From Vulcanimicrobiota bacterium (GTDB lineage Bacteria > Vulcanimicrobiota > Vulcanimicrobiia > Vulcanimicrobiales > Vulcanimicrobiaceae): a stretch of 64,000 nucleotides of DNA. The position numbers and the translations under genes are program-made. The stretch is taken from contig OY970223.1 of NCBI GenBank assembly GCA_963714015.1, positions 3,498,639-3,562,638 of the forward strand. Reading direction: 5' to 3'. Shown one piece after another: positions 3,055 through 3,508 of this stretch. A model generated the notes under the pieces. That model had not been told where the DNA came from. It was given only the letters and a program-made list of their open reading frames with translations, and ran no database searches. How positions within the stretch are numbered: position 1 is the first letter of the stretch; each line of letters opens with the position of its first letter.

Positions 3055-3253
3055 CGTATTGCGCAGCGCATCGCGGCCGGCGACCGGCATCCGTGCATGT
3101 CGCCGCTAGAAAATTTCCATCCGTGGAAATTTTCTGCTCGCGCCGCATTTTTCGCAAAACAAGTTTTGAAGCTGCCATCCCGGCAGGGCGAAAAATGTCG
3201 GAGCGCGCCGTGCACGCAGCCGTGTCGCCGGCCGCGATGCGTTACGAAATTCG
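3055..3253. repeat. Structured element copy A: long inverted repeat (perfect 18-bp arms 3067-3084/3224-3241) enclosing a multi-branch core (3105-3204)
   Basis: Arms cgcatcgcggccggcgac / gtcgccggccgcgatgcg; internal helices GAAAATTTCC/GGAAATTTTC, CATTTTTCGC/GCGAAAAATG, AAAAC/GTTTT, CTGCC/GGCAG. Confidence 0.85.
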
Positions 3254-3307
3254 TCGTATCAAGCGTGCGTCAAGGCGCCGATTTGCGGCACGCGCTTTAT
3301 TCCACAA

Positions 3308-3508
3308 GCTGATGCGAGGAATGCGTGAGGTTGGGCGGGATCACCGGTTCGGGGGACACTCTGATAATTTCGCGCAAACCCGGAGGGTTTCTTCAAAACT
3401 TCGTTCTCGCGAAATTTCAGGTAGCAGAAAATTGCCATGGAGGGCAATTTTCGAGCGTGTCCCCGGAACCGGTGATCCCGCCCAACCTCACGCATTCCTC
3501 GCATCAGC
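3308..3508. repeat. Structured element copy B: 52-bp inverted repeat (3308-3359/3457-3508, 1 mismatch) enclosing a core homologous to copy A in the opposite orientation
   Basis: Direct comparison of arms; core on the minus strand reads GAAAATTGCC/GGCAATTTTC, AATTTCGCG/CGCGAAATT, AGAAC/GTTTT, AAACC/GGTTT. Confidence 0.9.

Follow-up and report, generated by a model that had tools for sequence, protein, structure and literature searches.

We examined a stretch of 64,000 nt from a Vulcanimicrobiota bacterium (contig OY970223.1 of assembly GCA_963714015.1, positions 3,498,639 to 3,562,638; hereafter the window), in which the nuo genes lie on the minus strand and nuoD is separated from nuoE by a gap of 456 nt. 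This gap is limited by the nuoE ATG (at about position 3047) and the nuoD stop codon, and it is occupied by two inverted copies, A and B, of a core of ~100 nt that forms three hairpins, each copy being enclosed in its own long inverted-repeat arms. An earlier reading made from the sequence alone (the sequence-only reading) had described two inverted copies of a structured element within this junction, and a covariance model built from an alignment of the copies (R1) recovered both where that reading had put them, core A at 3105-3205 on the plus strand and core B at 3357-3456 on the minus strand. The match between the two cores was also recovered by an inverted-repeat search (repeats I3 and I4).

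The nuoE gene (2285-3047, minus strand) probably starts at the ATG at 3045-3047; the listed nuoE open reading frame (ORF; 2285-3178) begins further upstream, within copy A, and the nuoE-side DNA of relatives can be aligned up to about 3047. The left arm of copy A (3055-3103) begins 8 nt from this ATG and adjoins the nuoE Shine-Dalgarno region. It is followed by core A (107.6 bits, E 8.6e-23) and by the right arm (3205-3253; inverted repeat I2, 49 nt, 78% complementary). As the model strand of copy A is antisense to nuo, its loops read GGAUG in the nuo mRNA. A spacer in which we recognised no feature (3254-3307) separates copy A from copy B. The far arm of copy B (3308-3362) is an inverted copy of the arm next to nuoD, identical at 59 of 63 aligned positions with a mirrored GCTGA included, and core B follows with its three hairpins and closing helix (99.9 bits, E 6.6e-21). 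The model strand of copy B is the sense strand of the nuo mRNA, where its loops read CCCUCCAUGG and CCCUCCGGG. The nuoD-adjacent arm of copy B (3454-3508; inverted repeat I1, 55 nt, 96% complementary) runs into the gene itself, its outermost 5 nt being the last two bases of a nuoD arginine codon and the TGA stop. In the ORF list the nuoD open frame spans 3504-4886 on the minus strand, with its stop at 3504-3506 and a C-terminus of GEVDR, and the DNA on this side is 73-85% identical to that of relatives.

Folding of a 476-nt stretch covering the gap gave a z-score of -18.6 for DNA and, for RNA read in the mRNA sense, one of -20.0, and none of 100 shuffled sequences did as well in either case. 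A sequence scan of positions 2900-3700 returned no sigma-70-like promoter and no terminator. One DNA sequencing run (6% of sampled words) yielded short contigs only, 15 of 18 with less than 90% identity and none bridging the gap, and a metagenome scan with a 25-nt string from the end of nuoD found two contigs, both with another gene after nuoD, so the junction there was uninformative. The operon of an essential complex tolerates two perfect hairpins of ~200 nt at a junction where the cistrons of relatives overlap or almost touch.

Iterated nhmmer searches and R1 returned the same 17 full copies of the core in this 3.56-Mb single-contig genome (E 8.6e-23 to 2.4e-12). The unit is ~100 nt long, and its four to five helices comprise 33 base pairs; a shorter form of ~85 nt, without the middle small hairpin, occurs in some genera. 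In an alignment of the 17 copies, 90.3% of cells were paired compared to a shuffled mean of 71.9% and to 26-53% in slid controls, and 26 of 34 pairs were altered on both sides. An alignment of 66 copies from 16 genomes, which leans towards the fold because it was fitted to the model, had 95.7% of cells paired (shuffled mean 68.1%, slid controls 30-53%) and 32 of 33 pairs altered on both sides. The observed pairing was matched by none of 500 shuffles of either alignment. These data bear out the helices drawn in the sequence-only reading as kept by two-sided changes, the weakest being the AAAAC/GTTTT hairpin (83-84% paired). Its outermost GCT/AGC helix is not kept in every subfamily, as positions 1-2 pair instead with a GC that follows the first hairpin. 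Among the unpaired bases that it had called invariant, the TCC of the third-hairpin loop is present in all 17 copies; TGCT and GAAG are common, with GTT, ACT and GAAA variants.

Against Rfam 15, searched on both strands with E up to 10, the only matches were far below threshold (MIR918, 25 vs 268 bits; Mcr7, 19 vs 380; TD-2, 19 vs 49). Described RNA families do not include the element, which the sequence-only reading had not recognised as a known riboswitch, ribozyme or attC. The composition of its helices also sets it apart. Core pairs comprise 1971 Watson-Crick, 44 G.U and 22 A.C combinations; 26 of the G.U pairs fall at two positions of the weak middle hairpin, and elsewhere there are 18 G.U vs 17 A.C. 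Such near-absence of wobble pairs looks more like DNA-level palindromy or templated copying than like the usual RNA families. The sequence-only reading had concluded from the covariation that selection acts on the single-stranded fold. We do not retain this step, since the pairs are almost purely Watson-Crick and template switching can give mirrored changes without selection (PMC5941160, PMC8794818), so that covariation of the core is by itself no proof of RNA selection. The element provides a natural case in which strong covariation need not mean RNA-level selection, which bears on how compensatory changes are read in structured-RNA screens.

To survey relatives we used the R1 search and counted genomes other than this one. 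Among 40 relatives, the element was present in 15 of 24 genomes of the same family and in none of 5 and none of 11 genomes of two sister families; among 150 genomes from across the phylum, it was present in 49 of 71 genomes of the same family and in none of 79 from 20 other families. Bearing genomes contain 1 to 32 copies. The tallies for relatives (the 40 relatives here, and the junctions, Y1 transposases, relaxases and CsrA below) include four unpublished genomes, G010, G021, G023 and G036, all of which are without the element. A pattern scan of 185,579 species genomes gave at least 119 loci, 102 of them with a real core; the remaining 17 lie in unrelated, mostly AT-rich genomes and are chance matches. 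Among the matches listed, nearly all core-bearing loci are from entries titled Eremiobacteraeota, Vulcanimicrobiota or Baltobacteraceae, and the taxa named include Ca. Cybelea, Aquilonibacter and Rubrimentiphilum. The element is therefore a motif family, not a lone oddity, and, with 17 copies in this genome and more in relatives, the earlier suggestion of a family rather than a single case stands. It is restricted to one family of uncultured soil bacteria, the Baltobacteraceae (Eremiobacterota). In a literature search that covered papers outside bioRxiv supplements, we found no published description of repeats in Eremiobacterota, or of intergenic repeats with variable stems and conserved loops, that corresponds to it.

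A crude gene call based on GC content at third codon positions places all 17 copies of this genome between genes, and their orientation relative to neighbouring genes is mixed. With the origin at ~0.7 Mb and the terminus at ~2.4 Mb (by GC skew), 9 copies lie on the leading and 8 on the lagging strand. No core half was found in this genome apart from the other or flanking a gene, the 19 hits per half being the 17 full copies and a chance-level rest.

Comparison with relatives revealed sites that are filled in one genome and empty in another. The nuoD-nuoE spacer of the same-genus genome G001 is 37 nt long and element-free, and in G002 and G017 the nuoD stop and the nuoE start overlap, again without the element. 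At the sites of five copies in G001 and G007 (L069, L071, L065, L076 and L080), the intergenic DNA measures 170-218 nt there vs 11-42 nt here. Of the G001 loci, a single one (L051) corresponds to a site filled here too, and the arms differ between the two. The sequence-only reading had proposed a comparison of nuoD-nuoE junctions in relatives for empty sites, and this comparison did find short or overlapping ones; among the options it had listed, a non-autonomous mobile or REP-like (repetitive extragenic palindromic) element fits best with the site polymorphism at nuoD-nuoE and at the G001/G007 loci. The nuoD-nuoE junction is also occupied at L043 (G014), L138, L194, L162 and L153, with the same two-copy layout at L162.

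Most copies are single. Where two inverted copies lie within 700 nt of each other, they are arranged tail-to-tail (model strand + and then -) in 8 of 8 cases and head-to-head in none: the window pair (3105-3456), G000:C1:3358535-3358829, L039, L051, L153, L162, G011:C1:3320903-3321720 and G168:C1:490048-490331. At least three of these eight pairs are at the nuoD-nuoE junction and may lack independence. Direct repeats of the element were seen as well. At G000:C1:3386507-3386852 (L032), two direct copies lie 251 nt apart with related arms, a tandem duplication of the whole element with its arms, and at L081:1290-1420 (G007) the 3' end of the core and the right arm are directly duplicated ~110 nt downstream, a partial tandem duplication. 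Separately, 180 nt at G000:C1:485660-485840, the site orthologous to that of copy L037 in G009, resemble a decayed relic (TTTTTTCAAAGAACGAGTTGTGAAC...CATCCCG) that the model did not detect.

Arms were found in 117 of the 149 distinct copies with enough flanking DNA (local alignment score of at least 36). They abut the core and have a median length of 36 nt (interquartile range 30-45) and a median identity of 92%. Within this genome an arm matches nothing but its partner, except in the tandem pair, whose arms are related to one another, and a search of this genome for donor loci found none; the arms were thus not carried in from another locus. Inner bases are common within subfamilies over 4-25 nt (e.g., GAAGAC, GAAACC, GGCAAG). 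Copies L065 and L066, with cores that are 98% identical, have no more than ~20 nt of inner arm in common, and the outer parts of their arms are unrelated. At sites shared between species (L074/L081 and L148/L191), arms differ from one species to the other and are mirrored within each.

The origin of the outer parts can be read at four copies, in which the outer end of an arm takes in the conserved last codon or codons and the stop of a neighbouring gene, and these bases are mirrored on the far side, where no gene ends. The mirrored bases are GCTGA of nuoD at copy B of the window (5 of 5), AGCGCTGTAG at L071 (9 of 10), GGCTAG at L037 (5 of 6) and CGATGA of nuoD at L138 (6 of 6). The element-free orthologs in this genome end in AAAGCGCTCTAG (for L071) and GGCTGA (for L037). 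Since element-free genomes conserve these gene ends, the gene-end bases are the older and their far-side copy is the derived one, demonstrating that arms contain inverted flank sequence, at least at their outer ends. The outer stems, which the sequence-only reading had found unrelated in sequence between the two copies, are not RNA stems in rapid evolution; they are, at their outer ends at least, inverted copies of the local flank. By a count read off the list, 49 arm ends face a called stop codon, and for ~31 of them the distance to the stop is at most 10 nt; several convergent gene pairs are bridged by palindromes that reach from stop to stop (L038, L045, L065, L071, L073 and L076). In five G001 copies (L067, L068, L072, L073 and L075), both arms hold mirrored tandem units of another repeat of ~22 nt (CCTGAGGWATCGAAGG-like).

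The core can also change its orientation between its arms. Copies L147 and L165, from two species, have flanks in the same order with 85-91% identity and the same arms, and yet the elements agree at 107 of 193 positions when aligned directly, against 157 of 179 once one of them is reverse-complemented. The core thus stands in opposite orientations in these species, which is an in-place inversion. Flank orientation is suggestive of more flips at L140, L104, L105/L154 and L138/L194. We did not accept L026 vs L136 as a flip, as the arms cannot be aligned there and an independent insertion is possible.

The mismatches that remain between paired arms are not distributed evenly between the two strands. 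In the model orientation, which is that of the sequence-only reading, they are mostly A.C, C.C and C.T. Within 30 nt of the core we counted 186 C-type and 27 G-type mismatches on the model strand, compared to 84 and 70 beyond 30 nt. Scored per copy with the innermost 10 nt excluded, 75 copies favoured C-type mismatches on the model strand and 14 favoured G-type ones, with 28 ties (p 3e-11). Read on the opposite strand, the C-type mismatches become G.T, G.G and G.A, which are the least destabilising mismatches in nearest-neighbour studies. When 149 copies were folded with 35-nt arms, the opposite strand came out as more stable in 128 under RNA parameters (mean -6.7 kcal/mol) and in 125 under DNA parameters. 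The core alone has no clear stability difference between strands, and for window copies A and B the difference is small. Both the mismatch spectrum and the folding place the single-strand signature on the reverse complement of the strand that the sequence-only reading had written out as folded. Either the fold of the opposite strand is selected, as RNA or as single-stranded DNA, or C is preferentially lost from it, and either reading ties a single-strand process to the orientation of the core. The fading of the asymmetry past 30 nt would be expected from inversions with crossovers inside the arms.

From these observations we consider it probable that a mobile DNA repeat, palindromic, non-coding and confined to Baltobacteraceae, inserted into the nuoD-nuoE gap in two separate events, its arms being built on the spot. 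The unit that spreads would be the ~100-nt core (hairpin 1 and the closing helix with its two small hairpins) together with an inner arm of a few to ~25 nt, and an enzyme would move the core. After insertion, DNA on one side would be copied in inverted form onto the other, so that long arms are built and kept matched in place, most likely by template switching between the arms during replication, and the palindrome would come to occupy the non-coding DNA as far as the adjacent stop codons. The core could then be flipped by template switching or recombination between the arms. Precedents for parts of this scheme exist: passages of PMC5941160 describe template switching that corrects imperfect inverted repeats and keeps them matched in bacteria, PMC8794818 in part describes the making of reverse-complement copies by this route, and portions of PMC13100816 and PMC8604942 report that it expands inverted repeats and inverts spacers. 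On this account the copies in the nuo operon would be passengers, and the two highly stable hairpins that they add to the mRNA could, by analogy with REP and Correia elements, be processing or stability sites. If so, the family suggests that palindromes regularly grow by template switching and thereby fill intergenic space as far as the stop codons.

Several observations weigh against this explanation. Comparison of filled and empty sites revealed neither a direct target duplication nor conserved termini, so that transposition is inferred from site polymorphism alone, and flank identity to the species with empty sites is only 70-88%, too low to follow any arm, base by base, back to the sequence that preceded insertion. 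That some gaps are occupied again and again (nuoD-nuoE in five or more other genomes, and the sites at 1.369 Mb and 3.386 Mb) could reflect old, retained insertions and not fresh ones. Y1_Tnp (PF01797), the domain of REP-associated tyrosine transposases (RAYT) and of IS200/605 enzymes, was found in 0 of 16 bearing genomes in a search that was positive in 6 of 14 control genomes, and neither IS110 nor TnpB was found in this genome. A selfish DNA repeat by itself also leaves unexplained the tail-to-tail arrangement of all eight close pairs, the conservation of bases in loops and junctions over more than 14 genera, and the strand-specific mismatch spectrum.

Among known repeats, the closest in kind are the REP elements, bacterial interspersed mosaic elements (BIME) and REP doublets forming hairpins (REPINs) of Proteobacteria, which are likewise dispersed, intergenic, hairpin-forming and non-coding, occur within operons and are insertion-polymorphic among relatives. 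REP elements are frequently arranged as inverted doublets; here most copies are single, and the 8 close inverted pairs are all tail-to-tail. The REP unit is a palindrome of 20-40 nt in contrast to the 100-nt three-hairpin core found here, and the present element has long copy-specific arms and no RAYT in the bearing genomes. Miniature inverted-repeat transposable elements (MITEs), such as Neisseria's Correia elements (CREE), are also non-coding repeats of ~100-200 bp with inverted ends and a conserved core, and they too are present or absent at the same site in relatives. CREE are co-transcribed with genes as hairpins. Passages of PMC2649163 describe binding of CREE by integration host factor (IHF) and RNase III. 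The architecture differs, however, in that a MITE has conserved terminal repeats, common to all copies, and a variable centre. Here the centre is conserved and the arms are unique to each copy apart from the inner nucleotides shared within subfamilies, and we saw no parent insertion sequence when the core halves were searched in this genome and no target duplication in the aligned filled and empty sites. With its constant centre and its locally made stems, the element reverses the ordinary MITE design. Quasipalindromes made by template switching, in the parts of PMC5941160, PMC8794818, PMC8604942 and PMC13100816 that describe them, have arms matched by mirrored multi-base changes, local extension and spacer inversion, as here, but are short and confined to single loci, whereas here the process would operate systematically on a mobile family and yield arms of 30-55 nt around a 100-nt spacer. 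The element is best filed as a lineage-restricted variation on the REP/MITE kind, unusual for its on-the-spot arms, its in-place inversion, its Watson-Crick covariation and its strand-specific mismatches combined with CsrA-like loops.

These loops suggest the alternative that survives best, which we regard as unlikely yet worth weighing: that the core is a CsrA-binding RNA module, whose opposite-strand transcript would carry two A(N)GGAUG loops atop a long stem. Both loops could be bound by a single CsrA dimer, the copies could serve as decoys or cis-acting sites in a FliW-CsrA-flagellin system, and the arms could be RNase III processing stems that free the module from read-through transcripts; such a function would be compatible with mobility. 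On the opposite strand, the third-hairpin loop reads CAGGAUG, ACGGAUG or similar, and the first-hairpin loop reads CA(U/C)GGAUG or CAUGGAGG. GGA is present in the third-hairpin loop of 63 of 66 copies, in the first-hairpin loop of 55 and in both loops of 53, the two motifs lying ~57 nt apart, and 28 of 66 copies contain an exact CAGGA(U/A/C)G. For comparison, portions of PMC7652899 describe repeated CAGGA(U/A/C)G motifs in the hairpin loops of CsrB, and a consensus of RUACARGGAUGU, with GGA in a hairpin loop, for CsrA ligands selected by SELEX.

Other features of the element agree with this alternative. The stems vary under constant loops, the mismatch asymmetry points independently to the same strand (186 G-type vs 27 C-type within 30 nt), and it is the GGA strand that folds more stably in 128 of 149 copies. 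In this genome fliW, csrA (G000:C1:2836243-2836515) and a flagellin gene are consecutive, and the flagellin leader contains an AGGA hairpin loop (UAGGACG) and, at the Shine-Dalgarno site, the octamer CAUGGAGG that is also the first-hairpin loop of many copies. Against it, the scan for promoter-like sites found none within or near the two window copies. Of 11 copies between co-directional genes, only 4 have the GGA strand as mRNA sense (read off the list), and about one sixth of copies carry CGAUG where the first loop otherwise reads GGAUG. Stems below the loops measure 5-10 bp, compared to the stems of at most 4 bp that SELEX favoured in the part of PMC7652899 that treats it. Moreover, strand-biased loss of C could mimic the mismatch asymmetry, and the motif match amounts to one conserved loop sequence and not many independent events. 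CsrA was found in 67 of 71 other sampled genomes of the family, including 19 of 22 without the element; with CsrA near-universal in the family, its co-occurrence with the element says nothing. In a separate tally that took in the unpublished genomes, G021 and G023 had CsrA matches.

CsrB and RsmZ small RNAs offer the nearest comparison, as they too have variable stems under conserved A(N)GGAUG or CAGGAUG loops. They carry many sites per RNA, in contrast to two per unit here, and the present element is multicopy, mobile and invertible, has no Rfam match and resides in hosts whose Csr system is of the FliW type. We know of no RNA antagonist reported for a FliW-type Csr system. If the GGA-loop reading is correct, the element would be the first family of RNA antagonists or decoys for a FliW-type CsrA, in a phylum with almost no experimental genetics. 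A combined possibility, which we rate as still less likely, is a mobile, invertible CsrA decoy in which the flank-grown arms would act as an RNase III-type stem that releases a two-loop RNA of ~100 nt, the stems being kept by template switching and not by base-by-base compensation. A family of bacteria with a FliW-CsrA-flagellin system would then have gained a dispersed RNA sponge, tunable by copy number, on the back of a selfish repeat.

Some observations concern the csr locus itself, outside the window. An element copy lies directly after the flagellin terminator at G000:C1:2834710-2834811 (L029/L217), 1.6 kb from csrA, and copies lie 5-12 kb from csrA in G017, G080, G096, G113, G123 and G011, which may be chance or shared synteny. 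The flagellin gene after fliW-csrA (G000:C1:2834916-2836146, or L217:317-1547) reads as two overlapping frames, one with Flagellin_N residues 1-64 and the other with residues 50-137 and Flagellin_C, a frameshift or an assembly error.

Three further alternatives were weighed against insertion of a mobile palindromic repeat, and all fare poorly. It is very doubtful that the copies are a strand-specific nuo regulatory RNA, a processing signal or anti-Shine-Dalgarno element in the orientation of the sequence-only reading with CCUCC-type loops. Copy B does lie in the mRNA sense with its two loops as given above, both hairpins are extremely stable in the mRNA, and the junction is occupied at L043, L138, L194, L162 and L153, but 15 other copies in this genome sit at unrelated intergenic sites in both orientations, G001, G002 and G017 lack the element at nuoD-nuoE, the element flips between species, and the mismatch asymmetry favours the other strand.

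Slightly more doubtful still is a REPIN, an IS200/IS605-type or other single-stranded DNA element mobilised by an HUH enzyme, or a mimic of a transfer origin. The hairpins with conserved loops, the single-strand signature, the REP-doublet-like tail-to-tail pairs, the one relaxase gene in this genome and the model-strand loop ATCCTG, which we take to resemble an IncP-type nick motif, would all suit such an element. The enzymes do not: the sequence-only reading had advised looking for HUH/RAYT or IS200/605 enzymes next to copies, and the Y1_Tnp search described above, with its positive controls, found none in the 16 bearing genomes; the lone PF01797 match within the family is in G016, which is element-free. 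Y2_Tnp was not found in this genome either, in a search that was positive in no control genome and is hence uninformative. A link to relaxases and transfer origins was rejected, as PF03432 is present in 4 of 16 bearing vs 3 of 25 non-bearing genomes (the matches include G021). There is also no replication-strand bias (9 vs 8), and ATCCTG is read on the strand opposite to that with the signature. Least credible of all is an inverton, a phase-variable switch with the arms as recombination sites and the core as a movable promoter: the core does invert between inverted arms and is always intergenic, but the two window copies contain no promoter-like site, inversion was seen between species only, and the arms are copy-specific and so provide no common site for a recombinase.

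The relaxase of this genome is a single MOBP-type domain in an open frame of 296 aa (G000:C1:1200237-1200581), which could mark an integrated mobilisable element and is unrelated to the distribution of the repeat.

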